DNA of 64,000 nt from Planctomycetota bacterium. Lineage in GTDB: Bacteria; Planctomycetota; E44-bin39. The notes under the pieces were generated by a model that ran no database searches, was not told the DNA's origin, and saw only the letters and a program-made list of their open reading frames with translations. Each line of letters begins with the position of its first letter. The stretch's first letter is position 1. The stretch spans positions 81,238 to 145,237 of the forward strand of contig SOJX01000087.1 of NCBI GenBank assembly GCA_004376375.1. Reading direction: 5' to 3'. A program made the position numbers and the translations under genes. This document shows positions 1-48,792 of this stretch, one piece after another.

Positions 1-672
1 TTAGGGCTATTCCGGCCAGAATGCCGTGCGGTTTCGTTTCACGAGCTAACCGGAAGATCCATGATTATTGATCTAAGCCAGATTCCTAGCGACGAGATAA
101 AGAATGCACTGGCGCAATTGATCGTAATGTCAGCACATGCCTATTTTAATGCTCTTCCCCAGTCCGGCAGGATTCGCCAACTGTTTGTCATTGATGAGGC
201 ACACCGTGTGTTGGATTACGAATTCATGGCGGACTTCGTACTGCAATGCCGTGCCTATGGTGTTGGTATGATTCTGTCCTCTCAGTATCCAAGCCAATTC
301 CCGCAAGATGTATCGTCATCCATGGCAACCAAGATTCTCCACGGGAACGAGAGGGATAGCAACAGGGTGAAAGACATTGTCAAGCTGATACGTTGCGAGG
401 GGCGTGAAGGAGACGTGGCCAACCTTGATCGATTCCAGGCTTTTGTGGACAACCGTCATTATCCACACACGCTTCTACGCACCATGAACTACCCGCTGTA
501 CCTGGTATGGACCAGGCTCCGAGAGCTTGGGACTGCAACACGGGAAGAACTTTCGGAGGCAGAGGGATTCGATCCTTCCAAGCTGCAGATAGGGAACCTC
601 GTTCGACAATTGGAGCGCTTAGGACTTGCCGAGGAGCGGGAAGGCCGGGTGTTCTTGTTGGAATGCAAGTAA
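1..672 (+). CDS. P-loop NTPase, C-terminal part of a HerA/FtsK/TraG-like (DUF87-type) ATPase; 5' end lies outside the window
   Basis: Frame stays open from nt 1 with no stop before the first Met at 61. Walker-B-like 'LFVIDEAHRV' and a downstream 'RAYGVGMILSSQYPSQ' arginine-finger/sensor-like block typical of HerA/VirB4-type ATPases. C-terminal wHTH-like tail. Confidence 0.5.
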   Translation, partial: LGLFRPECRAVSFHELTGRSMIIDLSQIPSDEIKNALAQLIVMSAHAYFNALPQSGRIRQLFVIDEAHRVLDYEFMADFVLQCRAYGVGMILSSQYPSQFPQDVSSSMATKILHGNERDSNRVKDIVKLIRCEGREGDVANLDRFQAFVDNRHYPHTLLRTMNYPLYLVWTRLRELGTATREELSEAEGFDPSKLQIGNLVRQLERLGLAEEREGRVFLLECK

Positions 673-686
673 GCCGAGGTTAACAC

Positions 687-1541
687 ATGCATCCCTTCGT
701 CCAAGGAGAAAGTTACGACCGTGAGGAAGTACTCCGCTTCCTTGGAAGCAAGCAGAGACAAAGCGGGATCGTCTATGGACGCGACATCCATTCTTACATC
801 GCGATTTTCGCGGGGGGAAGGTCAGGCAAGACTGCCGGGTACGAGGATGGTTGGGGGTCCGATGGTACTTTCCGATACTGCGGGCAGGGTTCGCGTGGTA
901 ACCAGCGGTTAACAGGCCCCAATAAGGTGCTTGCAGAGCATCAAGGTATGATACTACTTTTTGAAACATAGAAGCCTAAACACTCCTGGAAGGGTAGGCA
1001 ACGCTTCCTTGGCGAGTACCACAGAATAGGTTATGAATGGGTAACGGGCAGAGGCTCTCGTCGGGGAGATCGTCTTCTGATGTTCTTGTTTATACCGGTT
1101 GAAAATATGGCAAGCAATAACCGGTTGCTTGTCAGCGCTGGGGAAGAAGTTGATATTGAAACACTCAAGGCCGAAGCAATAGCCGCAGGGCGACCTAGTT
1201 CCTCGACTTATAACACTAGAGCGGAATACCGATCAAGATCTGCATCTGTCGCACATTACGTATTGACGCGGGCAAAAGGAATATGCGAAGCATGTTTTCA
1301 ACCTGCCCCTTTCAATCGACCTGACCGGACCCCTTACCTTGAAGTCCATCATACTCAGCGGCTAGCAGACGAAGGGCCCGATGACATCATGCATGTAACG
1401 GGGATTTGTCCAAATTGCCACAGGGAAGCACACTTCGGTCCAGATACGGATGCGTTTCGGAAACGGTTGGAGAAATTCATTGCCGAGAAGGAAGGTGCTC
1501 TTGATCAAGAAACTCGAGCGGATGATCATCCGGCTTCCTAA
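687..1541 (+). pseudogene. SRA(YDG)-HNH modification-dependent (type IV-like) restriction endonuclease interrupted by one in-frame TAG at 969..971
   Basis: ORFs 687..971 and 1080..1541 are in the same frame, and the frame is open from 972 to 1079. The upstream part has SRA-like blocks ('GYEDGWGSDGTFRYCGQGSRGNQRLTGPNKVL' ... 'GRQRFLGEYHRIGY' ... 'GDRLLMFLFIPVE'), and the alignment continues across the stop. The downstream part has an HNH motif ('CEAC...EVHH...CPNCHREAH'). Confidence 0.55.
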
Positions 1542-2187
1542 ACCTCGGTTAATTCGGCAGTTCAGGGAGAAATTACTTTGTTGGTACGGCAAATACGGCC
1601 GGAAGTTCCCCTGGCGTAGGGCCTCGACCAGTAAGTATCAATACATCATTGCGGAAATACTGCTGCAGAGAACGCGGGCAGAAACTATCGCGGTCTTCTT
1701 CCCGAACTTTGTACGTGAATTTCCGTCGTGGAAGAATCTCGGCTCCGCAAGCGTCGCACGACTTCAACGCTATCTTCAACCAATAGGGCTTTGGCGTCGC
1801 AGGGCTGCATCGGTCAAGGCATTGGCGCGGGAGATGACCAAGAGAAACGGCATATTCCCCAAAAGGCGAGAAGATATCGAAGCGTTGCCTGGTATCGGGC
1901 AGTACATTGCGAACGCCGTGTTGCTCTTTTGCCACGGAACGCCGCAGCCCTTACTTGATGTTAACATGGCCCGTGTATTAGAAAGAGTCTTTGGGCCGAG
2001 AAAACTGGCCGATATACGATATGATCCTTATCTGCAGGAGCTTGCTAAAAAAGTGGTTCAACGCAAGACACCCGCAAAACTCAACTGGGCAATTCTCGAT
2101 CTTGCTAGCACAATTTGCCTGATAAGAAAGCCTCGCTGTAGTGATTGCCCGCTTGCATCAATATGCCTAGAAGCAGTTATCGCCTAA
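1522..2187 (+). CDS. HhH-GPD DNA glycosylase with 4Fe-4S loop; endonuclease III / MutY-catalytic-domain-only, Mig-like
   Basis: 'WYGKYGRKFPWR' MutY-like N-terminus. HhH-GPD block 'LPGIGQYIANAVLLFCHG...DVNMARVLERVFG'. Cys cluster 'CLIRKPRCSDCPLASIC' (Cx6Cx2Cx5C). About 222 aa with no NUDIX-like C-terminal domain. The ATG at 1522 overlaps the HNH ORF end by 20 nt. Confidence 0.7.
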   Translation: MIIRLPKPRLIRQFREKLLCWYGKYGRKFPWRRASTSKYQYIIAEILLQRTRAETIAVFFPNFVREFPSWKNLGSASVARLQRYLQPIGLWRRRAASVKALAREMTKRNGIFPKRREDIEALPGIGQYIANAVLLFCHGTPQPLLDVNMARVLERVFGPRKLADIRYDPYLQELAKKVVQRKTPAKLNWAILDLASTICLIRKPRCSDCPLASICLEAVIA

Positions 2188-2203: not shown

Positions 2204-3277
2204 ATGGAAACAATCTTTGGAGATGAATGTGGGTATACTGGCCAAGACCTTCTTCAGCCTGAACAACCTGTATTTGTTGAAGCAACCATAAAAATCTCTG
2301 AAGAGCAGAGCAAGGGATATCACGAAGAATTCTTTAGCAAGATTCAAGCAAAGGAATTAAAACACAAGAAGCTCTCAAAGAGGCCAAAACAGCAAGAGAT
2401 GGTTTTACGGTTTCTTGATTCCATCATTAAGGATTCCGTCCAGATCGATGTATTGATTATGCATAAACCATATGCTCTCCTTGGGAAGTTCGTTGATCTT
2501 GTTGTCGAACCAATAATGAAAATAACTGGCCATGACTTACTTTCAGAGGGAGAAAACCTCGCACTGACTAATTTGTTATGGATGGTTCTGCCCGTATTTA
2601 CCAGTGAGAATTTCTTCAATGAATTCCTGGTTAATTTTCAGAAATTGGTTCGAGAGCGTACTCCTGAGGCCTATGAAGATTTCTTCCGTCCTCTGTTATC
2701 AAGAAAATATCCACGACAACTGGATATTTTGATAACACCAGTTATGCTCTCAAATAGCCTGCTCAATACATCCATACTCTCTGATCTGGAGGATGGCCTA
2801 AAGGTAATGATAACCTGTTATTTCACACTTCTTGCGCGCTGGAACAATAAAGTTGATAAAGATATTACACTTGTGCTTGACCGCTCTTCTGAAGTTGCAC
2901 AGGATTATAAAACTTGGGAAGCATTAATGAATCCCTACAATAAACCCGTCTCTATAGGAACTGGGAATAGAAATACAACTTTCCCGATGAAAGTAAAAGA
3001 AACTTCTTTGGAGGACTCATGTGACTGGTGCGGATTACAGTTGGCTGACATCATTGCTGGTGCCACGACGAGATATGCTCACTGGATATTAAATGGACAA
3101 AATGCCGAAGATGAATATGCGGTTAAACTCGGCGAATTAATCATTAATAACATTATTGAACCAGCATGGAAGCTGTGGCCATCTGACAAAATGACCCCAG
3201 AAGAAATGGGTACTGAAAGGTATAATGGCAATGAGGCGATTGAGCAAATCGGGAAGATAATTGATGACAATGATTAG
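2204..3277 (+). CDS. DUF3800-family protein
   Basis: N-terminal 'IFGDECGYTG' (DUF3800 'DESG'-type start) and C-terminal 'LQLADIIAGA' motif. Confidence 0.6.
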   Translation: METIFGDECGYTGQDLLQPEQPVFVEATIKISEEQSKGYHEEFFSKIQAKELKHKKLSKRPKQQEMVLRFLDSIIKDSVQIDVLIMHKPYALLGKFVDLVVEPIMKITGHDLLSEGENLALTNLLWMVLPVFTSENFFNEFLVNFQKLVRERTPEAYEDFFRPLLSRKYPRQLDILITPVMLSNSLLNTSILSDLEDGLKVMITCYFTLLARWNNKVDKDITLVLDRSSEVAQDYKTWEALMNPYNKPVSIGTGNRNTTFPMKVKETSLEDSCDWCGLQLADIIAGATTRYAHWILNGQNAEDEYAVKLGELIINNIIEPAWKLWPSDKMTPEEMGTERYNGNEAIEQIGKIIDDND

Positions 3278-3408
3278 TGCAAACATAACATAGCCATGTT
3301 TTCAGTAGATTCCAGAGCGTTTTTCTGAACTAGCTGCGTGAAATACTTTGGGGGAGACATAAGTAAACATTATCGGTGCAATGGACGTCCTACCTAATGC
3401 ATTACTCT

Positions 3409-4284
3409 TCAATCAATTTTTCTCCCATCTGTTTCTAGAACGATTTTTTCAAAGCACGCCAGAACGTCAGGGAACTTATCTTTGAGGTATTTCTTGACCT
3501 TCTTGCTGGTAATCAATTTCCCAACGTAGCTGCATGTCTTTAATAGGTCAGTGGAATATCGGTGATACGTAGTAGTGTAGAAATCGTGGCTTTTTTGGGC
3601 TTCTTCCAACTTTGCAACCAGCTCTTTCCCTTTCGTGGGGTCCTGCGTCCAGGGTTTCCTTTTCTTTTTTTCGCCATTGCGCAGACTTTCAGGGGTTTTG
3701 ATTACCAGGGCCCGGGCAAACGACCGGCTGTAATCATTATTTTTCTGCATCTCTCTCAGTATTTGAAGTTGCCGCTTCGGCTTCACATAGGTGAACTCCG
3801 CTGCGCACTTCCGGCTCATAAAATTATCATCCAGTACTTTAATAACTTTCAGATGCAGTTGCTTAATCACAGTGGCCGCGAGCCGATATTTTATAGACCG
3901 CAAGCCAAAGGTCCCAGAAATGGCCGGTTCGGCAACGGTTTTGAGGGCTTTTTGCAGCATTCTATTCTCTTGTACAGCCGAAATCCTACTGACCTTTTTG
4001 TTCCAAGTGTATGTTTCCTTATTTTTCTTATTGCTGAAGACCCGACACGGAACTTTCCTGACGCCGAGTTTTTCAAAAGCCTTAAATCTGAGATAGCCGT
4101 CCAGGATGCTGTACTTCCCGTTTTTTTTATAAACGCAGACAGGTTCGACCAGGCCGACAGCCTTAATGGTGGCCACTATCCTGGCAAATCCCGCGTGAGA
4201 TTTCAGGTTAATGTCTCTTACGCGCAGGGGGACGAGATTCTCTATCGCAATATCTTTTCCCTGTACATTTACAACGTTTGCCAT
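3409..4284 (-). CDS. ParB/Sulfiredoxin-fold (ParB N-terminal nuclease-like) domain protein 1
   Basis: N-terminal 'PLRVRDINL...IKAVGLVEPVCVY...YSILDGYLRFKAFEKLG' matches the ParB-N pattern (G-x-R-R-x-A-like box). Lys-rich C-terminal half. Confidence 0.55.
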   Translation of the reverse strand: MANVVNVQGKDIAIENLVPLRVRDINLKSHAGFARIVATIKAVGLVEPVCVYKKNGKYSILDGYLRFKAFEKLGVRKVPCRVFSNKKNKETYTWNKKVSRISAVQENRMLQKALKTVAEPAISGTFGLRSIKYRLAATVIKQLHLKVIKVLDDNFMSRKCAAEFTYVKPKRQLQILREMQKNNDYSRSFARALVIKTPESLRNGEKKKRKPWTQDPTKGKELVAKLEEAQKSHDFYTTTYHRYSTDLLKTCSYVGKLITSKKVKKYLKDKFPDVLACFEKIVLETDGRKID

Positions 4285-4307
4285 GGGATTCCCTCCTTAG
4301 AAGCAGT

Positions 4308-4706
4308 CTACTTCGGCGACATCCTTCCCCGATTCCGAGTTTTGGGGCCCGCCGCTGGCTTTCGTTTCGCGTCGGCAGACTTGGATGACTTCTTTTTATT
4401 CCTCGGAAGAGTAATAAGTGATTGAAGAAACGAAAGGAACTCCATCTCTTCCCACATGACAAAGCTGGGCGCTTTTACTACTCCCAGATTCCGACATGCG
4501 TTTTCCCATGAAGGGCCGTCGATGATGAGATACCTTCCGTTACCACCGCTGATCATCATTTTCTCGATAAGCCCGATCCTTTTGATTGTCGACATCAGCT
4601 TGTTCAGACGTTCAAGGCCGGGAGAGCTTCCGTTCTTGGGCTTCTGAGACATCAGGAGATTATGCAACGCCAGAACTCTTTCCATGACGGGGTTCTTTTT
4701 AGACAT
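4308..4706 (-). CDS. ParB/Srx-fold domain protein 2 (small, basic C-terminus)
   Basis: 'IKRIGLIEKMMISGGNGRYLIIDGPSWENACRNLG' is ParB-N-like. Its stop overlaps the upstream gene (4699..4706). Confidence 0.45.
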   Translation of the reverse strand: MSKKNPVMERVLALHNLLMSQKPKNGSSPGLERLNKLMSTIKRIGLIEKMMISGGNGRYLIIDGPSWENACRNLGVVKAPSFVMWEEMEFLSFLQSLITLPRNKKKSSKSADAKRKPAAGPKTRNRGRMSPK

Positions 4707-5592
4707 GATACTCTCCTTTCAGTCGGGGGCGCTGGTCGAGCCCTTCGACTTTTAACAAGGCAACCAGTTTTTTGTCCTTCCAAATAGTATTGATTCCATC
4801 CAGGAGAGTGAGCAGGCGATTCACCTTTATGTTTGCCTCATGGTTGAATGACCTTTTCTCCTTGGTAATCTTGGAAATATCTGCCTTCAAGTTTTTGACC
4901 GAATAATTTTTCAGACGCGAGCGCCCTCTTCTATTTCCTGTCTGCTTTCCGCGTTTGATTCTGGTTTCTATAATCTTCCGGACCGAACTGGTATTATTGC
5001 TGCTGATAATGCCTGTATCGAAAGCGTCCATAAGAACATTCTGGATGGTGGAATTATCCGACCTTGCCACCAACATGGCAAAGGTTATGGGGAACAACCC
5101 CTGTTCCACTCCTTTTATCAACCTCGCTTCGCCCTGTTCCACCAGACGGATATAGTCCCGGATGTACGATTCGCATTTGCCGACGATTTTGCTAATCTCA
5201 GCGTATGACCAGCCTTCATCGTGTACCCGTTTGATTTCGTATGCAAACCACATCGTCCCGGGCGGTACGCGAGCGATGTTTTCAACCAGGGAATAAAGCA
5301 GCGCCTCCTTTTTACTACAGCTTCTGATCTCCGCAGGAATATGTGAGTACCCGAGCTCTTTGAAAGCGAGATAACGCCCCTGGCCACAGATCAATTCGTA
5401 ATGACCTGTTCTCTTGAAATTTCGCGTACTTACAAGGATGGGCTTTAGCAAGCCTACTTCCTTGATGCTCCGGATGATTTCCTGAAATTTAGTCTTGCCT
5501 CTGTTCCGAGGGTTCAACACCTTGATCTTGTCAACCGGTATATCCTCGTATTTGCGTTCTGTCATTGGCATTATCTTAATCGTTTTCATAGT
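4699..5592 (-). CDS. ParB-like nuclease domain protein 3
   Basis: 'IKEVGLLKPILVS...YELICGQGRYLAFKELG...LVENIAR' (ParB GERRxRA-like box and ENxxR box). Start chosen at 'MKTIKIMPMTERKYEDIPVDKIKV'. Follows the recombinase directly on the minus strand. Confidence 0.55.
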   Translation of the reverse strand, partial: TMKTIKIMPMTERKYEDIPVDKIKVLNPRNRGKTKFQEIIRSIKEVGLLKPILVSTRNFKRTGHYELICGQGRYLAFKELGYSHIPAEIRSCSKKEALLYSLVENIARVPPGTMWFAYEIKRVHDEGWSYAEISKIVGKCESYIRDYIRLVEQGEARLIKGVEQGLFPITFAMLVARSDNSTIQNVLMDAFDTGIISSNNTSSVRKIIETRIKRGKQTGNRRGRSRLKNYSVKNLKADISKITKEKRSFNHEANIKVNRLLTLLDGINTIWKDKKLVALLKVEGLDQRPRLKGEYHV

Positions 5593-5600
5593 ATGACCTC

Positions 5601-7091
5601 CTAGTCCAAAAGGGCCGCAATCATATCCAAGTTGCGGCACCCGTAGAGTTCGAGTCTGCTGTCACTCGAACTGAAGAGCTTGATGTTGCGGCTGTCTACG
5701 AGCATCCTGGGAAAAGTCAGATAACCTAGAATATCGTGTTTCCCGCTATTGGACAGGGGAACCCCAAGGGTGATATCCACTTCTTTTCTGGAATCCGGCA
5801 GGAACGACCAATAGGTGGTATATCCGTGAAAGACAGGCACCGACGGTTGAATGAGAAGGCTGAAACTGTCATTCAGGACAACGTAATCGTCAATCTCTTC
5901 AACTTGCCTGGCCAACGTTCTGAGCTGATCGACAACTGATTGCCTGGCCCGATCCCGAACATCTTTGTAGATATTCTGAAATGCCATGTCCAGTGACAGA
6001 AAATGCTTTGTGTAAGTTGCTGGAGACACCATCTTCTTGTCTGCAGCAACCTGACGTGGGCCGGCTTTGCCATATCGTTTATATAGTTTCGCAAGCCTCG
6101 CGAGCATGTCCTCGGCTGAATACCTGCGTTCGTGCTCTGCATTCATGGCTTCGATTCTTTCTTGAGCCTGAGTGAACAAAGCCTTATTGATGATCCCCTT
6201 GAATGCATTTTCTTGGCGAACCCACTCTTCTCTGGGGTTCTGCTTGGTGCCAGATTGCAGCTTTTGCCGTGTCTTATTGTAAACCATTGTTCCGATGTAG
6301 AATTCATTGGTCAAAATCGCCTGAATCGCACTGCTCGTCCACTTTTTACCACCGGGAGAAAGAATACTTCCGTCATTAAGAGAAGCCGCAATTTCTTTCG
6401 GGGCACAGCGTTTTTTAACAAAGGAGTTAAATATTTTCCTGACGACAGATGTTTCTTTTCTATCACCCGGAGCCAAAGTAACCCTTTGGTTTTGGATGCT
6501 TTTTCTTTGTCCCGGTTTCAGAATCTGAACGGGGTTGCGTTTTTCATCCAGGAGAAGCCTATGAAGACCATACGGTGGCGGAGCACCCGCCCGGAACCCC
6601 TGCTCGGCAATCTTCACACATCCCTTGAATACTTTGACGCTGAGTTCGCGGCTGTAATTGCCGGCCATAAATCGTTCAATATTCAGGTGCAGGAAACCTA
6701 AGAGGTCATCTTCTTCACGGAAGCCCATTGTCGTATAGACAACTTGTTTTCCGTAATTCAGACACATCGCCGCATAATACGCCGCAATGTCCGGATTCTG
6801 GAATCGCCCCCATCGGGTAGCATCAAGCACCAGGACATAATCGAAGTCCTCCTTGCCCTCAATCACATACTCGATCATTTCAAGGAAGGCATCTCTGCCC
6901 TTGGTTGACAGACCAGATTTTCCCGGCTCTTCAAATTCTTTGATAATCTCAATACGATTATCATCAGCGAACTTTCCTATCCGCTCCCGTTGAATAGGAA
7001 TGGAGTTTTCCTGCCGGTCTTGTGCAGAGTGGCGATAATAAGTTATCGCTTTTTTCCCACCCGGGGCTTTCTTTTGTTTTTTCCACCACAT
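5601..7091 (-). CDS. large serine recombinase (resolvase/invertase catalytic domain plus recombinase and zinc-ribbon region)
   Basis: N-terminal 'AITYYRHSAQDRQENSIPIQRERI...DYVLVLDATRWGR', resolvase-like with a Ser nucleophile context. About 500 aa with a long recombinase-domain tail. Start placed at 'MWWKKQKK'. Confidence 0.75.
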   Translation of the reverse strand: MWWKKQKKAPGGKKAITYYRHSAQDRQENSIPIQRERIGKFADDNRIEIIKEFEEPGKSGLSTKGRDAFLEMIEYVIEGKEDFDYVLVLDATRWGRFQNPDIAAYYAAMCLNYGKQVVYTTMGFREEDDLLGFLHLNIERFMAGNYSRELSVKVFKGCVKIAEQGFRAGAPPPYGLHRLLLDEKRNPVQILKPGQRKSIQNQRVTLAPGDRKETSVVRKIFNSFVKKRCAPKEIAASLNDGSILSPGGKKWTSSAIQAILTNEFYIGTMVYNKTRQKLQSGTKQNPREEWVRQENAFKGIINKALFTQAQERIEAMNAEHERRYSAEDMLARLAKLYKRYGKAGPRQVAADKKMVSPATYTKHFLSLDMAFQNIYKDVRDRARQSVVDQLRTLARQVEEIDDYVVLNDSFSLLIQPSVPVFHGYTTYWSFLPDSRKEVDITLGVPLSNSGKHDILGYLTFPRMLVDSRNIKLFSSSDSRLELYGCRNLDMIAALLD

Positions 7092-7345
7092 ATTATTACT
7101 TTCTGCGGAACTCGCGGATCGCGTTACTGAGAAGCACGGACGCATTGCCGAGCTCTTCCTTTGCAGCACGGCCAAGGAAAAAAGCCGATCCCCCCATTAA
7201 GAAAGGGGAATTATAGGCACTTTTAATGAATTTTTTTCAAAATATTTTTCAGCCTATATCTAGTGGCTTACGCTATCCAAGGCTACAACATGTAGAATTT
7301 TGCCGCTGGTGTGGGTTATGAATATTAATTAATGAGTCACGATTT

Positions 7346-7852
7346 TCAACTGGCCGAGCTAATCTTATGAGAAATCCTACTGGCAAACTCCTGTAAGAGA
7401 TTAGTTGCCTTTCTACGTGTAATTGCCTGATCGAGCAACGTGCCAACAACCCGAATCAGTTCTGCTTCATCGGAAGGCTCCTGCGATTGCTGGGATAGAA
7501 TGAGCAATTTTTTCCTGATTTTCTTTAACGCGCCGCCTACTTTTTTTCCTCGCCTTTTTTTGCCGATTAAATGTTGATTGACCGCTGGTTGGGAAATGTT
7601 CAATTTCTCAGCGATTTCGGACTGGGTGTGGCCGCGGAAACGAAGGATGAGGGCCTGTTGCTGCTTGTATGTCAAATCATTGAGAATGATCCTGTTTAAT
7701 AACGGTATAAACAGCGATAAGATTTCATTTTTTTTCAGCCGGTCTTTTCTTTCGTGATTATAACTGTACCACCGACCGGAGGTCTCGGGTATATTTTGCC
7801 AATGTCTTACATCAAGGTGAGCATTTCCAAAAAAATTCTCCCCGTTTTTCAT
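7346..7852 (-). CDS. small sigma-70 region-4-like / HTH DNA-binding regulator
   Basis: 'LTYKQQQALILRFRGHTQSEIAEKLNISQPAVNQHL' HTH followed by a basic tail. Confidence 0.45.
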   Translation of the reverse strand: MKNGENFFGNAHLDVRHWQNIPETSGRWYSYNHERKDRLKKNEILSLFIPLLNRIILNDLTYKQQQALILRFRGHTQSEIAEKLNISQPAVNQHLIGKKRRGKKVGGALKKIRKKLLILSQQSQEPSDEAELIRVVGTLLDQAITRRKATNLLQEFASRISHKISSAS

Positions 7853-40289: not shown

Positions 40290-41678
40290 CTAAGATATCT
40301 CCTCGAGATGCCCGACCAGCCGTTTCACGATTTCGGGCACATAATCCAGGTGCTCGGGTTTCATCAGGACGCCGCGAAGGACGGTCATATCGGGCGTGTC
40401 CCAGAAATCTTTCCCGAACCTGTCGCCCAGAAGCGGCGGCGATATTTTCATCTTCGCGGTCCAGACAGGCTTTTCAGGATGGTTCATTGCAGCGGTAAAG
40501 AGTTTTTCTGAAAGGGCAGAAGCTGTTGAGGCTTTATCCGCACGCGGAAAATAGGCGACGATATCGAGCTCGGGCTCGACAAGCATTTCAAATTTACCAC
40601 TTTCCTTCATCAGCTTCGACCATTCCATAGCGGCTTTGCGGCATTTTGCCAGTATCGGCCCGAAGCCTTCATCGGTCCTGAGCGGAAAGCATTTCAGCGT
40701 CACCCAAAGCGCGGCTGCGGCCGCGCCGGCGCGTGAACATTCGAGGCTTATTTCGCCGAGGTGCAAATCCTTCGACGTGAAATATGTGTAAGGCGAATCG
40801 TGCCTGTAGAAACGCCCGACCGCCGGGTCGGCGAAAATCACGCACCCGCAGCTGTAAGCCTGCAGCCCGTGCTTGTGCGGGTCGATTACGATGCTGTCGC
40901 AATCTTTCAGGCACCTGAACGGCCCGGGATTTATCAGCGGTTCGTCGGCATCGGCGAGCAGTTTGAAAAAACCACCGTAGGCCGCGTCGGCGTGAACGCG
41001 AATACCGTGCTTCTCCTTGAGCAGCACAAGCTCGTCAACCGGGTCGACCGCGCCCAGGCCGGTCGTGCCGACCGTCGCGACGACGGTGCCGACATTTTCC
41101 GTTTTCAGTTTCGCCTCGAGGTCGTTCAAATCCATCCGTCCGGACTCGTCGTTTTCGATTACGATTCCCCGCGCGCCTATTACCTCGCAAAGCCGCGGGT
41201 GCGTGTAATGGCACTGCCTGCTGAAAGCGATCGCCTTGTCGGGATGCAGATTCTTCGCCACCCACAGCGCTTCGAGGTTCGCGACCGTGCCGCCGCCGGT
41301 GAGGTGGCCGAGATGCTGCGGAAAATCGAACATCTGCGCAAGCTCGTCAACCGCTTCGATCTCCATCGAAGACGTCGCGGGCCCGCCGTCGAGCGCGTGA
41401 TTGTTCGGGTTAATATGCATCGCGGCGAAATACGCTGCCACCGCGACCGGGTGCGGCGGCTTCATCATCTGCCCGGCGTAGAAGGGGCTGTAGAATGGAT
41501 AAGACTCAACAAGGCGGTCGAAATATTCTTCAAGCACCGGTTCTATTTTTTCAAACGGCAGACTTGTCGTTGAATCAGCCTCGGACACGGGTGCTTTCGC
41601 ATGCCAGCGCTCGACAGCCTCCAGACACATTTGAAGCACTTTTCTGTAATCTCCGCCGTTCATGCCCGCTCCGTTCAC
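40290..41678 (-). CDS. PLP-dependent group II decarboxylase (tyrosine/aspartate/glutamate decarboxylase family)
   Basis: 'SIVIDPHKHGLQAYSCG' PLP-lysine motif. 'GGTVANLEALWVAK'. Confidence 0.75.
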   Translation of the reverse strand: MNGAGMNGGDYRKVLQMCLEAVERWHAKAPVSEADSTTSLPFEKIEPVLEEYFDRLVESYPFYSPFYAGQMMKPPHPVAVAAYFAAMHINPNNHALDGGPATSSMEIEAVDELAQMFDFPQHLGHLTGGGTVANLEALWVAKNLHPDKAIAFSRQCHYTHPRLCEVIGARGIVIENDESGRMDLNDLEAKLKTENVGTVVATVGTTGLGAVDPVDELVLLKEKHGIRVHADAAYGGFFKLLADADEPLINPGPFRCLKDCDSIVIDPHKHGLQAYSCGCVIFADPAVGRFYRHDSPYTYFTSKDLHLGEISLECSRAGAAAAALWVTLKCFPLRTDEGFGPILAKCRKAAMEWSKLMKESGKFEMLVEPELDIVAYFPRADKASTASALSEKLFTAAMNHPEKPVWTAKMKISPPLLGDRFGKDFWDTPDMTVLRGVLMKPEHLDYVPEIVKRLVGHLEEIS

Positions 41679-41681
41679 ATC

Positions 41682-43124
41682 CTAATTCTTCCCGGCAGGT
41701 ACAGTGCTTTTCCTGCTCTTGTCAGAGTGGAAAATTTTCACGTTCGTCGCAAGGGCATATGTAATATCATCGTCGACTGAATACGTGGCCACGGCCAGTA
41801 TCGCAACGCAGCCTTTCTCAGGGCTTTTACGGTCATATGAGTATGTATATTCAGTTTTTTCCTTTTTCATTCCATAAGGTTTCCATTTTGATTCCCTGAA
41901 ATCCGTCGAATCCGAAGTCGCGACCCAGGTGCGCACGTGAAGGGGCTCGATGTCGGAGCCCACCCTGACGGACAGTCGCCCGTTTATCTCTGCAAACTCC
42001 CATACCAGCTTGGGCCATTTTAATCGCCTGTCCACCATTAGAGTAAACGCGATTATCGACTTGACTGCCGTCATCATCCCGTTCTTCAGTCCGTGGCCGT
42101 CGTTGGGGCAGTATAAAACGTGCTTCTCGCCCTCCAGACCGCCCCAGTAAAGGTTCAGGGCGTCAAGCGGCCAGTAATCATCGTTGGTGCCGATAAAAAT
42201 AAATTTGGGCAGCGACAGTTTTTCGCGAAAAGTGAACGGATCGACAATTTCCCCGAGCGAAGTACCCCAGTCTTCCTTCTCGACGAGTTGCTGCGGGAGG
42301 TTGCGTTTTGTATACGGCGCGATTTTCCGGCTGAACTCCCCCCACATCTCGAGCTGGTGCTTCATCTGCGAGCGCAGGTCAAGGTTGTCGTACACGATCG
42401 GCGCAATCGCCTTGACGCGCTCATCAACGACCGGCGTCAGCCAGGTCGTCCAGCCGCGTTTCGACGCACCGGTCACGACAAAGCCTGAAATGCTTATGTC
42501 GCAATCTTTTTTCAGGAATTCCTCGACCGCATCCATCGCCTTTACCGCGCCCTTCACCATCGGCAACAGAAGCGGCCATGTCTCATCCCGCGTCTCGAAG
42601 TATTTCACGAAAGTGTGCGCGATAATGTCGTCTTCGCGAAGACCCCCGAACAGGGGCTGGTTTGGAATATCCATAACGCCTGCGATGGGGAGTCCGACCT
42701 GGTTTGCCAGCTGCGCTACGATTCTCAATTCATTGCTCAGATGTCTTCTTCTCGGTTGCCCGGGCTCCCTTTCTTTCAGCTTACCGGTTTTGCGGTCCCT
42801 GTTGCTCCCCCCCAGAACCATCATAACGGCAAGCGACGGCTGCTTCTCGACCTTCTCCGGCCTGACAACGTAAACCGTATGTTTCCACGTAATACCACGC
42901 CACTTCTGCGAGGTAAGATTAAGCTCGTAGGCGACAGCGCCCCCGGGAAGCTTAATCTCACCGACTCTTTCCCATTTGTACGCGCCGTCGTCTGCATTAA
43001 CATACCTGGTCAGTGCGGACGGCTTTTCCTTTTTATCCGATCCCGCTTTTTGCGTTCGGGCAGTCGTGCAGGAAGCGAACGCAACAAGGAAAAAGGCGAT
43101 TATTATTCTAGTCATACGCATCAT
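41682..43124 (-). CDS. PhoPQ-activated pathogenicity-related protein (PqaA)-family lipoprotein / alpha-beta hydrolase-like
   Basis: 'MMRMTRIIIAFFLVAFASC' lipobox. 'FVVTGASKRGWTTWLT' PqaA-like Ser block. Confidence 0.55.
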   Translation of the reverse strand: MMRMTRIIIAFFLVAFASCTTARTQKAGSDKKEKPSALTRYVNADDGAYKWERVGEIKLPGGAVAYELNLTSQKWRGITWKHTVYVVRPEKVEKQPSLAVMMVLGGSNRDRKTGKLKEREPGQPRRRHLSNELRIVAQLANQVGLPIAGVMDIPNQPLFGGLREDDIIAHTFVKYFETRDETWPLLLPMVKGAVKAMDAVEEFLKKDCDISISGFVVTGASKRGWTTWLTPVVDERVKAIAPIVYDNLDLRSQMKHQLEMWGEFSRKIAPYTKRNLPQQLVEKEDWGTSLGEIVDPFTFREKLSLPKFIFIGTNDDYWPLDALNLYWGGLEGEKHVLYCPNDGHGLKNGMMTAVKSIIAFTLMVDRRLKWPKLVWEFAEINGRLSVRVGSDIEPLHVRTWVATSDSTDFRESKWKPYGMKKEKTEYTYSYDRKSPEKGCVAILAVATYSVDDDITYALATNVKIFHSDKSRKSTVPAGKN

Positions 43125-43174
43125 TGTGGCTTTCTCCCGCTGAGAAAAACAGGGCGGCTTGACCGCGACGGGAA

Positions 43175-44149
43175 CTAGGGTGTGACGATACCGGTCCTGG
43201 CGAATGCGCTTACGATTCGCCATGTCGGAAGCCAGCGGTCCGGGCCGCGGCCCCACGTGCCGTCGGACCGGCGCTCGTTGAGCAGGGAGCCGGAAAGCTT
43301 ACGCACGATTTCTTTCGCAAGCTCGCCCGGAAAGCGGGAAACCGTCTCGACGATATAAGCCTCAGCCACGCGGCTCAATCGCTTCTTTGGCCCGCCGGGC
43401 GTGCGCCTGACAACGAAATGCCCGCTCTGCGCCTGGTGCGCGGAAAGGAATTCGAGCGCCGACGCCGCAGCCCCCAGCTTCACAAGAGACTCCTTGCCGG
43501 ACAGCGCGCGCAACACCATTACGGTCGAGGCGACTCGCCCACCCGCCCCCGGCGCAGGCCAGGAACCGTCGTCCAGTTGCATGGACATAATCCGCTCATT
43601 AACCGGCGCAATGTCGGAATCTTCCGGGCTTACTTTGTAACGGAAAAGCGCTTCCAGTTCCAGGCCCAGGAATCCAAGTCCGTTCGCAAACGCCGCCCGA
43701 ACGTCAGGCCAGTTGCCGCCAAGCGTATCATATTGATAAAACTTCGTCTCTTTCTTAACGTACTTATCCCGCTCTTCAAGAGGAACAGGAATAAAACCGC
43801 CTTCGAGCCTGACGCTTTTGCGCGGCCCCGGCACAAGCCTCGCGCCCGAGGCGACAATCGAGCGAAGCCATTTAATCGCGCTTTCAACCCCCGGCTTATC
43901 GGGCGAGACGCCGAGCCCGCTGAAGCGGCGCAGGATCTGGCACGTCCCTACAACCGAACCGTCCACGGAGCCGTCGTAACGCTGTTTGCGGCGCAACCGG
44001 CTGAGCAGGGTCGAAATGAAGCGTTTATCTTCGTCGGAGTGCGTGTTCAGAATTCTGAATCGGACCAAAAGGCCGAGCAGGTTCGGGTCTTCGCGGTATG
44101 GTGCAAAAAAATCTTTTGCGGCATGCGGCATATCTCTGCTCTCGCTCAA
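43175..44149 (-). CDS. prenyltransferase/squalene-oxidase-repeat (alpha/alpha toroid) protein
   Basis: Repeated 'DGSW...'/'DGTWG' motifs. No signal peptide. Confidence 0.45.
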   Translation of the reverse strand: MSESRDMPHAAKDFFAPYREDPNLLGLLVRFRILNTHSDEDKRFISTLLSRLRRKQRYDGSVDGSVVGTCQILRRFSGLGVSPDKPGVESAIKWLRSIVASGARLVPGPRKSVRLEGGFIPVPLEERDKYVKKETKFYQYDTLGGNWPDVRAAFANGLGFLGLELEALFRYKVSPEDSDIAPVNERIMSMQLDDGSWPAPGAGGRVASTVMVLRALSGKESLVKLGAAASALEFLSAHQAQSGHFVVRRTPGGPKKRLSRVAEAYIVETVSRFPGELAKEIVRKLSGSLLNERRSDGTWGRGPDRWLPTWRIVSAFARTGIVTP

Positions 44150-45730: not shown

Positions 45731-45852
45731 CAAATTTAGATTTTCGATTGGATGGTTCGGCACTTAGAAAAACATTTCGCTGGTAACTTCCGGTTCATCG
45801 TTATAAAATCTTTATCATTCCATAATGTTTCAGAAAGTTGAAAGGTAAGGAA

Positions 45853-48792
45853 ATGGGAGCGCCAAAGAAAATCAGGGAACTTGTCAAAGGATTCGAACTA
45901 AATCTGAAGATTGATGGAAAGGATTTCATAGATGAAGCAAATCTCCGAAATGAATATATAAACGAGTTCTTTAAGTGCCTTGGCTGGGATGTGGAGAATA
46001 ATAAGCGCAGAATCGCAAGCTGGAAAGAAGTTATTCTAGAGCGGTCACATGGTGCAAAGGGAAAGAAGAAGCGTGCTGATTACACGATCCGCATTGGGCA
46101 AACTCCTGTTTTTCTGGTGGAGGCAAAGAGGCCATCAGTCAATATAAGGAAAGATGTAGATTCGGTATACCAACTGCGAAAGTATGGATGGAACCAAAGG
46201 GTTGTTCTAAGTATTTTGACGAATTTTGAATTCTTTGCAGTATATGATTGCCGCAAGCAGCCTTTCAGGAGTGAAAGGGCAAAGACTTCGCTTGTTCCCA
46301 AGCTTTCATTCCATTACAGGGAATACGTTTCCCGATGGGCTGAAATCGAATCAATGTTCTCAAAGGCAGCGATTGAAAAAGGCTCATTTGATGAATTCGC
46401 GATCAAGAAAAGAAGTGGAACTCTGCCGGTCGACGAAGCTTTTCTTGAGGAAATAGAATCATGGCGAAAACAACTTGCGAAAGATATTGCAAAGAGAAAC
46501 AGGCGGCTTTCGAATGATCAGATTACTTCAGTCGTTCAGCGCACGATAGACAGGATAATATTCCTTCGTATCTGCGAGGGTCGGGGAATAGAACACGAAC
46601 AACTGATCAAACTTCTTGAGGAAAGCAACACGTACAATTGCCTCGGCGTTTTGTTTAAAACCGCGGACAAGAAATACAATTCAGGGCTTTTCTACTTTAA
46701 AAAAGAAAAGAACCGCCTTCCCGAAACAGACGAATGGATGCTAAACCTAAAAATCGATGACAAGGTGATCAAGAGAATAATCAGGCAACTTTATGAGCCA
46801 TATTGCCACTACCAGTTCGCAATGATGCCGGCTGACGTTCTTGGGCAGGTTTACGAACAATTTCTTGGAAAAACTATAAAGCTTAAGAAATCTCGCCGTG
46901 TAGAGATTAAATATAAACCAGAGGTAAAGAAGGCAGGCGGGGTCTACTATACTCCAACCTATATCGTAGACTACATTGTTGAGAATACGGTTGGCAAACT
47001 ACTTGAAAAATGCAAAACACCGAGAACGGCCTCCAATCTGAAAATCCTCGATCCTGCATGCGGCTCTGGTTCCTTCCTGATTGTCGCTTACCAGAAGCTT
47101 ATGGACTGGCATCTCGAATATTATATTATGGATGGGCCAAAGAAATACTCTAGGGGCAGAAAACCAAAAATATTCGAGTTTAACGGCGAGTGGCACCTGA
47201 CGACGGGAGAGAAGAAAAGGATTCTGTTAAACAACATCTTCGGCGTTGATATTGACGAGCAGGCTGTGGAAGTTACGAAACTCTCTCTGCTTCTGAAAGT
47301 ACTGGAGGGAGAAAATGACCGCACACTTCAGAAGCAGTTGTTACTCTTTCCGGAGCGGGTTCTGCCGGACCTCCACAGAAATATCAGGTGTGGAAACTCG
47401 CTTATCGGGACGGATTTCGAGGATGAAATAGGAAGAAGTTATGAAAGTGAAAAAGAACGCTCACAGGTAAATGCGTTCGACTGGGATGGGGAAAAAGGAT
47501 TTCCGGAAATTTTCAATAGAAAGAATCCGGGCTTTGACGCGGTGATTGCGAATCCGCCATATGACGTTTTGGAAAAGGAAAGAGGGAAGGCCTCTTGGCC
47601 ACATGATTTGTTGTCAGATTATGTTAGAATTAATAAGAATTATAAATATGGACTTGGAGGGAAGCTTAATCTATTTAGGTTCTTCATTATCCGTTTCGTT
47701 CATCTTCTGCGAAGAAACGGAAAACTTGGGATGATTACCCCATTAGCTTTGCTTGCGGATATTAGTTGTGCTAGAACCCGCCGCCATCTAGTTTGTTGTA
47801 CTACGAAATCCATTGCAAACTGCTTTCCGCAAAAAGACAATCCAAAGCGCCGGGTATTTACCAAAGCAAAGCTCTCAACCGTAGTGTATACAGGGACTAG
47901 AACACCGAAACAGTCCGAAGAACGAGCGCAAGTTCGCGTTCGTGCCTTTCCATGGAATAGCTTTAATGACCAATACGTTGAATGTCTTATAAGATTGCAG
48001 GATACAAGGCTATTGGACCCCGAAAACACACCTATTCCTCTTCTTAACGAAGACACATGGCGCTTATGCAAAAAGATACATAAGATGAGGATGGTTGTTC
48101 GTATTGCGGAATTATCCGATATAGAAGTTCGGCGCGGTGAAATCAACCAGACGGTTTATAGAAGCTTCATATCGAGCAATAAGAAATTGCATCGCCTCCT
48201 GAAAGGTGTTGAATTCGGGCAATATATAATGCATAAAGAATTAAGTCAAGGAAAGCGAGAATGGTTTAATGAGAAGGCGTTTTTAAAGAAACATTCATCT
48301 TATTCCATTATAAAGAAGAGACGCATTGCAACTCAGCGAATCACCGGTGTTGATGAAAAGCTAAGGATAGTGGCAACAATCATTGAATCACCAGCATATT
48401 TTGCAGACTCAACTAACTCTGTCTCTCTTTCTGAAGAATCACCCTACGCACTTGAATACGTTTTGGGATTACTAAACTCAAAAATGTTCCAATGGCGTTT
48501 CAAAGTTACAAGCACAAATAATAACGTCGGGACAAATGAAATTAAATCCTTGCCATTTCGCAGCATGATTTTTTCGCATAAAAAGGACAAAGCTCGCCAT
48601 GACCGGATAGTGAAGCTCGTTGAGACGATGATTGATTTGAACAAGAAGCTGCCAAAGGCAAAGGGCGGGCATCAGAAGGAAGTGATTCAGCGGCAGATTG
48701 ACGCGACGAACAGGAAGATTGATAAGCTTGTTTACGAGCTTTACGGGTTAACAAATAGGGAAATTAAAATTGTAGAAGAAGGGGCCTTATAG
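45853..48792 (+). CDS. type IIL/IIG restriction-modification fusion enzyme (MmeI-like): N-terminal PD-ExK nuclease, N6-adenine methyltransferase and target-recognition domain
   Basis: 'ADYTIRIGQTPVFLVEAKRP' (D...EAK). Motif I 'ILDPACGSGSFL'. Motif IV 'VIANPPYDV'. About 980 aa. Strong RBS 'aaggtaaggaa' before ATG 45853 (the ORF track starts at a TTG at 45838). Confidence 0.75.
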   Translation: MGAPKKIRELVKGFELNLKIDGKDFIDEANLRNEYINEFFKCLGWDVENNKRRIASWKEVILERSHGAKGKKKRADYTIRIGQTPVFLVEAKRPSVNIRKDVDSVYQLRKYGWNQRVVLSILTNFEFFAVYDCRKQPFRSERAKTSLVPKLSFHYREYVSRWAEIESMFSKAAIEKGSFDEFAIKKRSGTLPVDEAFLEEIESWRKQLAKDIAKRNRRLSNDQITSVVQRTIDRIIFLRICEGRGIEHEQLIKLLEESNTYNCLGVLFKTADKKYNSGLFYFKKEKNRLPETDEWMLNLKIDDKVIKRIIRQLYEPYCHYQFAMMPADVLGQVYEQFLGKTIKLKKSRRVEIKYKPEVKKAGGVYYTPTYIVDYIVENTVGKLLEKCKTPRTASNLKILDPACGSGSFLIVAYQKLMDWHLEYYIMDGPKKYSRGRKPKIFEFNGEWHLTTGEKKRILLNNIFGVDIDEQAVEVTKLSLLLKVLEGENDRTLQKQLLLFPERVLPDLHRNIRCGNSLIGTDFEDEIGRSYESEKERSQVNAFDWDGEKGFPEIFNRKNPGFDAVIANPPYDVLEKERGKASWPHDLLSDYVRINKNYKYGLGGKLNLFRFFIIRFVHLLRRNGKLGMITPLALLADISCARTRRHLVCCTTKSIANCFPQKDNPKRRVFTKAKLSTVVYTGTRTPKQSEERAQVRVRAFPWNSFNDQYVECLIRLQDTRLLDPENTPIPLLNEDTWRLCKKIHKMRMVVRIAELSDIEVRRGEINQTVYRSFISSNKKLHRLLKGVEFGQYIMHKELSQGKREWFNEKAFLKKHSSYSIIKKRRIATQRITGVDEKLRIVATIIESPAYFADSTNSVSLSEESPYALEYVLGLLNSKMFQWRFKVTSTNNNVGTNEIKSLPFRSMIFSHKKDKARHDRIVKLVETMIDLNKKLPKAKGGHQKEVIQRQIDATNRKIDKLVYELYGLTNREIKIVEEGAL

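Follow-up and report, generated by a model that had tools for sequence, protein, structure and literature searches.

A premature TAG codon in the SRA-HNH nuclease gene of a C5 methylase-headed cassette from a Planctomycetota bacterium

The stretch of DNA analyzed here, referred to as the window, comprises 64,000 nucleotides (nt) from a Planctomycetota bacterium (GenBank assembly GCA_004376375.1, contig SOJX01000087.1, positions 81,238 to 145,237). Near its left end lies an interrupted gene for a nuclease with an N-terminal SRA-like and a C-terminal HNH domain (SRA-HNH), which probably represents a single gene recently inactivated by one G-to-A transition that turned the TGG codon of Trp95 into TAG (Table 1). 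It takes fifth place in a row of six co-oriented genes that is headed by a C5 cytosine methylase and closed by a Mig-like DNA glycosylase. By itself, the nonsense codon is a routine matter: it makes a young pseudogene within a known enzyme family and misleads annotation, the tail being listed as a free HNH endonuclease; the cassette is more interesting than the broken gene. It holds a nuclease that would read 5-methylcytosine (5mC), a type of enzyme normally incompatible with 5mC methylation, conserved beside a C5 methylase and a glycosylase of the deamination-repair type.

The interrupted gene and its orthologs

The open reading frames (ORFs) at 687..971 (94 codons) and 1080..1541 (153 codons) share a frame that also stays open through the stretch between them, 972..1079. 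Translation of the whole span 687..1541 yields 284 codons interrupted by a single internal stop, an arrangement far outside chance expectation; no further stop and no frameshift were seen, and every residue that is invariant in the family is retained. A GAGG ribosome-binding site is located 7 nt ahead of the ATG at 687, and a scan for promoters and terminators gave no signal beyond shuffled expectation. The full translation product of the TAG allele is only a fragment of 94 amino acids (aa), devoid of the last SRA core strands and of the whole nuclease. Public annotations treat the tail differently: GenBank lists the ORF 1080..1541 as 'HNH endonuclease' (TET34898.1), and JGI leaves it uncalled.

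Table 1. Features of the window around the interrupted SRA-HNH gene.
Feature	Position	Strand	Description
1849-aa giant protein, 3' end	1..672	+	last 223 codons, part of the C-terminal HerA/FtsK-type (DptH-like) ATPase; gene at L009 4437..9986
SRA-HNH, 5' part	687..971	+	94 codons of SRA-like domain, then premature TAG; aligns with residues 1-94 of full-length orthologs
Nonsense codon TAG	969..971	+	from TGG (Trp95) via G970A
Frame remainder	972..1541	+	last SRA strands, linker and HNH nuclease domain; includes ORF 1080..1541
Mig-like HhH-GPD/Fe-S DNA glycosylase	1522..2187	+	221 aa from ATG 1522; alternative starts TTG 1501 and ATG 1450
DUF3800-family gene	2204..3277	+	guanine-plus-cytosine content 0.40 versus about 0.51; not conserved in orthologous cassettes
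Three ParB/RepB-like genes and large serine recombinase (5601..7175)	3409..7175	-	Pfam ParB_N, RepB, Resolvase, Recombinase

A search with the joined protein, in which X was placed at the stop, returned 1050 homologs at an expectation value (E) <=1e-3. The best match (E 2.5e-123) is 69% identical over 95% of the query, and the best homologs as a group are 57-69% identical across 95-99% of it. Nearly all homologs are single proteins of 265-300 aa with PF26348 (SRA_ScoMcrA) and PF01844 (HNH). No gap interrupts the alignment at the stop, where the window reads LLFET*KPKHSWKGRQRFLGEY (asterisk, stop) and an ortholog LIFETWKPRNSWKGRQRFLGEY; in the multiple alignment, orthologs have FETWKP at the place of FET*KP. 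Across 104 full-length homologs the residue in this column varies (R, W, L, T). Within the close clade (23 proteins, about 47-69% identity) at least 90% have Trp here, and each of the six orthologous DNA loci examined has TGG as the codon (in L174, TTCGAAACATGGAAGCC compared with TTTGAAACATAGAAGCC in the window). Because the orthologous codon is TGG, the lesion is G970A, a change of W95 to amber. An earlier note, made from the window sequence, had claimed that the two ORFs share one frame across an open 972..1079, that the SRA-like similarity continues through the TAG and that one gene carries one nonsense codon; the translation and the ungapped alignment with single-chain orthologs bear this out. 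Deamination of 5mC was considered as the origin of the change, a C-to-T on the bottom strand, and set aside, the context TTCCATG fitting no identifiable methylase motif.

The comparison with orthologs proposed in the earlier note returned single chains, and no naturally split SRA/HNH or HNH-only relative was found among the short matches checked, P0028 (188 aa, starting inside the SRA domain) being left out. Among the apparent short forms, P0022 results from a gene caller that cut an intact ORF short, and P0032, which breaks off within the HNH zinc finger, probably reflects the end of its 3.2-kb contig. Two HNH-only candidates of planctomycete origin, L075 (9512..10381) and L090 (195..1136), proved to have a different N-terminal sensor domain, with the motif VVIYIAGYGFYATA, fused to a similar HNH domain; this N-terminal domain is possibly EVE/PUA-like, which would make another combination of modification sensor and nuclease.

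The identity of the protein was addressed by domain matches and by fold. PF26348 is recorded, as precomputed matches, on the 94-aa product and on the orthologs, and this together with the fold search forms the basis of the SRA assignment. The HNH domain (PF01844) occupies residues 200-249 (E 1.7e-6), with C200, C203, H221, H222, C241, N243, C244, H245 and H249 all present in the window. The best sequence matches in the PDB are EcoKMcrA (6ghc, 5e-15) and ScoMcrA, and a conserved GYxD...YxGxG segment aligns with the latter. An AlphaFold2 model of the joined protein (alignment A1) has a mean predicted local distance difference test score of 86.9. Foldseek matched this model to ScoMcrA (1e-12), TagI (2e-8) and EcoKMcrA in the PDB, and further to the ScoMcrA SBD-SRA fragment 5zmn, to the SRA domains of SUVH6, KRYPTONITE and UHRF1 and to the SRA-like domains of LpnPI and MspJI. 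In the model, residue 95 stands just past the strand 88-93 and before the SRA-barrel strands 105-120 and 129-137. Judged by sequence and predicted structure, the repaired protein can soundly be assigned as a putative modification-dependent (type IV-like) nuclease of the ScoMcrA/TagI/ScoA3IV kind, as the earlier note had proposed. In the orthologs both domains lie in one polypeptide, and in the window copy the TAG at codon 95 separates them.

Like TagI, ScoA3IV/Sco5333, TbiR51I and the SRA-HNH part of ScoMcrA, the window protein has an N-terminal SRA-like domain and a C-terminal HNH domain with a CxxC...CxxC zinc finger. Its size is similar to that of TagI, ScoA3IV/Sco5333 and TbiR51I (272-290 aa), and Foldseek matches include 5zmm, 6ghs and 6ghc; however, it is only 18-24% identical to the solved SRA-HNH enzymes. 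The characterized enzymes are stand-alone and in conflict with 5mC methylation, whereas the clade of the window protein occurs in a C5 methylase operon and is translationally overlapped by a glycosylase gene; in the window copy, a nonsense codon moreover interrupts the gene. Prophage and viral contigs often carry relatives of TagI/ScoA3IV-type enzymes. The more distant SRA-HNH homologs (<=40% identity) are mostly stand-alone and likewise common on viral contigs, and a few of them (L015, L016, L018) adjoin a related methylase or F-G-H genes.

The part of the gene past the stop shows no decay. The ratio of identity after the stop to identity before it is 0.865 for the window, compared with 0.861 +/- 0.064 for pairs of intact orthologs. 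With no extra divergence past the stop and no second lesion, the event should be recent, or not yet fixed, and the recent inactivation suggested in the earlier note agrees with this. Altered HNH motifs were observed in two other cassette-type SRA-HNH proteins: in L174 (9782..10600) HH is changed to HR and CEAC to CKAC, and in P0002 CPNCH is changed to CPNYH. These substitutions may be independent missense inactivations.

Authenticity and possible bypass of the stop codon

The region occurs in a JGI metagenome contig (3300022538, 120 kb), in a metagenome-assembled genome (MAG) at NCBI (GCA_030588815.1, 202 kb) and in the Logan assembly SRR7716471. A fourth record, a 346-kb contig of a Planctomycetota MAG, lists the same two ORF products. 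Comparison of alternative assemblies at 969..971 had been proposed in the earlier note, and the TAG is present in all three contigs compared. Their concordance rules out a one-off assembly error. Over 6-14 kb the contigs are 100% identical and so probably go back to one read set, which makes them no independent confirmation.

Several points weigh against a genuine and recent inactivation of the nuclease. The source is metagenome-assembled, the identical contigs may all stem from one read set, and the evidence stands at consensus level, so that a read-level error or an allele, minor or major, of a mixed population would fit it. The window protein differs at six other positions conserved in the close clade, where intact proteins have a median of about 2, although this comparison is biased against the window sequence. 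As regards the cassette, most related cassettes hold the methylase and SRA-HNH together, so that conflict between the two is not automatic, self-toxicity is not inevitable and a selective motive is unproven; moreover, the roles of the cassette genes are deduced from domain content only.

The metagenomic origin and the consensus-level evidence favor an alternative in which the organism does not truly have the TAG: the codon would stem from an error in sequencing or in the consensus, or from a polymorphism in a mixed population that also has an intact TGG allele. The otherwise perfect appearance of the gene is also what an error would give. Nevertheless, this alternative is quite improbable: three pipelines arrived at the same base and the 346-kb record at the same split products, a consensus seldom contains single-base substitution errors, and an intact near-identical allele was found neither among 5.8 billion protein clusters (best match 69%) nor among 15 billion sequences.

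If the TAG is genuine, it could be read through or bypassed. Genome-wide amber or pyrrolysine recoding was considered and rejected, as TAG is a normal terminator here, ending 12 of the 47 long non-overlapping ORFs in the window (among them the neighboring 2204..3277), no other genuine in-frame TAG was found in window genes, and the 64-kb window holds no transfer RNA (tRNA) gene. The earlier note had likewise seen no other window gene with an in-frame TAG and had judged such recoding unlikely. A second candidate for a split gene, with a TAG at 41682 within 40290..43256 on the reverse strand, consists of two unrelated adjacent ORFs of 524 and 462 aa, a PhoPQ-related protein and a pyridoxal phosphate-dependent decarboxylase, that share a frame by coincidence.

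A more local bypass would be that the split is tolerated, with a restart at Met132 giving a free HNH nuclease of 153 aa, perhaps together with a 94-aa SRA fragment, or with low readthrough of the TAG. The first in-frame Met past the stop is the ATG at 1080 (Met132), preceded by GGGGAG; the ORF that it opens keeps every catalytic and zinc-binding residue of the HNH domain and is annotated as an HNH endonuclease, and the post-stop part of the gene is undecayed. However, the GGGGAG lies 12 nt upstream of the ATG, which is poor Shine-Dalgarno spacing, and no suppressor tRNA or recoding signal is present in the window. According to the model, the stop would take out three core strands of the SRA barrel, making it unlikely that the 94-aa piece folds. 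The in vivo activity of ScoA3IV and Tbis1 requires SRA and HNH in one protein (PMC4333417), and none of the relatives checked has a natural split or HNH-only form. A tolerated split is thus very unlikely, and inactivation of a single gene by the nonsense codon is preferred.

The six-gene cassette

The surroundings of the gene were examined by fetching 10 kb on each side (locus L009, in which position 1 of the window corresponds to 9315). The six genes overlap or lie at most 16 nt apart, in the order C5 cytosine methylase, 677-aa protein, 530-aa protein, 1849-aa protein, SRA-HNH and Mig-like glycosylase. The four genes upstream of SRA-HNH lie in L009 1..9986, three of them wholly to the left of the window, and the five genes other than SRA-HNH are open. 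The methylase (P0127, PF00145, 456 aa), just left of the window, has all canonical C5 motifs (FAGCGG, GPPCQGFS, ENV, QLRPR, GNAVPP). The Dcm-type (5mC) methyltransferase that the earlier note advised to look for elsewhere in the genome is therefore present, with intact motifs, as the first gene of the same operon.

The glycosylase gene overlaps the 3' end of the SRA-HNH gene, and the same overlapping pair occurs in L171, L007 and L008. The protein has the domains PF00730 and PF00633 and the EndIII Fe-S motif PF10576. It matches the catalytic domain of MutY in the PDB (4e-32) and Mig.MthI (1kea, 1e-26) over residues 12-213 of 221, and lacks the C-terminal (NUDIX-like) domain of MutY. Its score against the mutY model TIGR01084 (157 bits) is below the cutoff of 286, it also falls under the nth equivalog cutoff, and it matches the PADLOC model PDLC03398 at 3e-28. 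The end-to-end match to 1kea and the missing MutY C-terminal domain uphold the designation Mig-like given in the earlier note. The sequence is compatible with a T:G, an A:G or a modified-base substrate. The early stop in the SRA-HNH gene may reduce translation of the overlapping glycosylase gene. Public gene calls in this part of the cassette are erratic: they put the start of the glycosylase at either 1450 or 1501, and the intact SRA-HNH of L174 and the glycosylase of L173 are called truncated. The apparent truncation in L173 is a gene-caller artefact, the gene being intact from a TTG start. Owing to such inconsistent calls, pseudogene counts by protein length would be unreliable for the SRA-HNH family.

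The co-encoding of a C5 methylase with a repair enzyme resembles the Dcm-Vsr and M.MthTI-Mig pairs, the repair enzyme here being a short Fe-S HhH-GPD glycosylase. In contrast to those pairs, the glycosylase gene overlaps SRA-HNH and not the methylase gene, which lies about 10 kb upstream of it.

The three consecutive genes between methylase and nuclease recall DndFGH/DptFGH, the restriction module of phosphorothioate systems, in size (677, 530 and 1849 aa compared with 532, 445 and 1729 aa for DptF, DptG and DptH), and the giant protein, like DptH, ends in a HerA/FtsK ATPase. This resemblance is confined to the C-terminal domain, which matches the PADLOC DndH models (E 1.9e-23) and the DptH ATPase domain in the PDB (7es4, E 2.1e-11); hhalign against bona fide DptH gives 96% probability over 280 columns, again of the ATPase only. 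The 677-aa protein has weak SspF matches at 1e-6, and the 530-aa protein no PADLOC match. With hhalign, the values were 29% over 45 columns against DptF and 0.7% against DptG, from shallow profiles (7-9 sequences), and a search of NCBIfam for DptF/DptG homologs among the cassette proteins gave no match. Thus, DptF and DptG homology was not detected in the cassette proteins, the identification of the three genes as DndFGH was rejected, and the giant protein is called DptH-like only. Two further differences from DndFGH/DptFGH are that the phosphorothioation genes dndABCDE, which accompany that module frequently though not universally, are not present within about 28 kb around the cassette, the C5 methylase filling the modification slot, and that the cassette has this methylase at its head and SRA-HNH and the glycosylase at its tail. 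Membership in the MADS (mad8) and Druantia (DruM) systems of PADLOC was also rejected, as the matches are to common ATPase and methylase domains and DruF, DruG, DruE and mad1-7 are missing.

Cassettes with the six genes in this order and with SRA-HNH intact are found in L171/L172, L173, L174 and L093, from other metagenomic lineages, and partial cassettes, limited by contig ends or by the flank retrieved, occur in L007/L011, L008, L012 and L092. The giant protein exists in two versions, with either a HerA/FtsK ATPase or an AAA+ RuvB-like ATPase at its C-terminus. In a comparison of L173, L008, L012, L092 and L093 with L009, L171, L174 and L007, its middle part and the two preceding proteins were homologous between versions at 24-27% identity. 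From these sequences, the versions look like the result of a domain swap that may resemble the 'HerA/FtsK capture' described for DndH (Rakesh, Aravind, Krishnan 2024; PMC10853773). With its variable ATPase cap, the cassette would echo the capture systems. The SRA-HNH and glycosylase genes also occur at a different locus, L091 (407..9879), behind a 2049-aa DEAD/MZB (DruE-like) helicase and a NERD-UvrD helicase, so that the two genes travel together as a portable module between defence loci of different kinds. The arrangement of the cassette was not described in the literature searched, and the word 'glycosylase' is absent from PMC10853773. A cassette of C5 methylase, DptH-like module, SRA-HNH and Mig-like glycosylase is therefore apparently undescribed.

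A modification-dependent nuclease inside a methylation-based defence locus is also seen in BrxU, a type IV enzyme associated with BREX. As there, a nuclease of modified DNA lies within a locus whose methylase would mark self, and the analogy suggests that the two activities might provide complementary cover against modified phages. The systems differ in the nuclease family (GmrSD in BrxU, SRA-HNH here), in the methylase (N6-adenine there, C5 here) and in the core machinery.

Loss of the nuclease, proposed roles and the carrier element

Judging from its domains, the intact cassette may work as follows. The methylase would mark self DNA and the three large proteins would act on unmarked DNA. The Mig-like glycosylase would repair T:G mismatches arising from deamination of 5mC, as Vsr does for Dcm, and SRA-HNH would add an attack on foreign DNA with modified cytosine. 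In the lineage of the window, the nuclease may have been lost neutrally, or because a 5mC-reading nuclease would be dangerous in a cell with 5mC methylation.

The latter option is a more specific version of the main explanation: the nonsense mutation would have been selected as the 5mC-reading nuclease attacked the organism's own DNA, methylated by the cassette enzyme or by another C5 methylase. SRA-HNH enzymes are lethal in dcm+ Escherichia coli, where escape mutants arise readily (PMC4333417), and modification-dependent nucleases of the PUA/SRA type are seldom located near methylases, less than 6% having a DNA methylase within 3 kb (PMC6765204). An intact-looking C5 methylase in the same operon and the suspicious HNH-motif substitutions in two other cassette members (L174 and P0002) also point in this direction. 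However, the SRA-HNH enzymes of this clade are not stand-alone, since a C5 methylase heads the operon here as well as in L171, L173, L174 and L093; in most cassettes both genes are retained and their catalytic residues are complete, which indicates that the pair is normally compatible, and neutral loss explains the data equally well. Adaptive loss is therefore possible but on balance doubtful. The earlier note had reasoned that inactivation would fit if the element or host had acquired cytosine methylation. One part of this stands, as a C5 methylase is present and self-toxicity is plausible; the other does not, because methylase, SRA-HNH and glycosylase are linked in a conserved cassette, which makes the methylase an ancestral partner and not a new acquisition.

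SRA-HNH and the overlapping Mig-like glycosylase might also be working parts of an undescribed, prophage-borne defence system based on 5mC, a tentative and rather unlikely proposal. Such a system would be made up of all six cassette proteins, the giant one with an exchangeable ATPase cap. In it, the SRA domain may read the system's own methyl mark, distinguishing self from non-self or hemimethylated from unmethylated DNA, and would not act as a stand-alone type IV enzyme. If this proposal is true, the window is a natural knock-out, indicating that the reader-nuclease is dispensable or costly. The broken copy constitutes in any case a natural experiment on whether the nuclease can go while the rest of the cassette stays intact, and six defined genes are available for testing defence and the handling of the self mark.

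A prophage-like element in the Planctomycetota MAG appears to carry the cassette as cargo. Upstream of the methylase (L176 453..7923) lie genes for a DUF3799/PD-(D/E)XK exonuclease, AAA_24 and Tail_P2_I proteins and small ORFs. Downstream, the ParB/RepB-like and recombinase genes on the reverse strand (Table 1) are likely the integration end of the element, with ordinary chromosomal genes following past the serine recombinase. A small sigma-70-like protein is also encoded downstream of the cassette, in the 2204..7852 region of the window. Elsewhere, at 45838..48792 on the forward strand, the window encodes a type IIG restriction-modification enzyme of the Eco57I/MmeI type (984 aa; HSDR_N, N6_Mtase and TaqI_C domains, NPPY motif), a second defence gene, based on adenine methylation.

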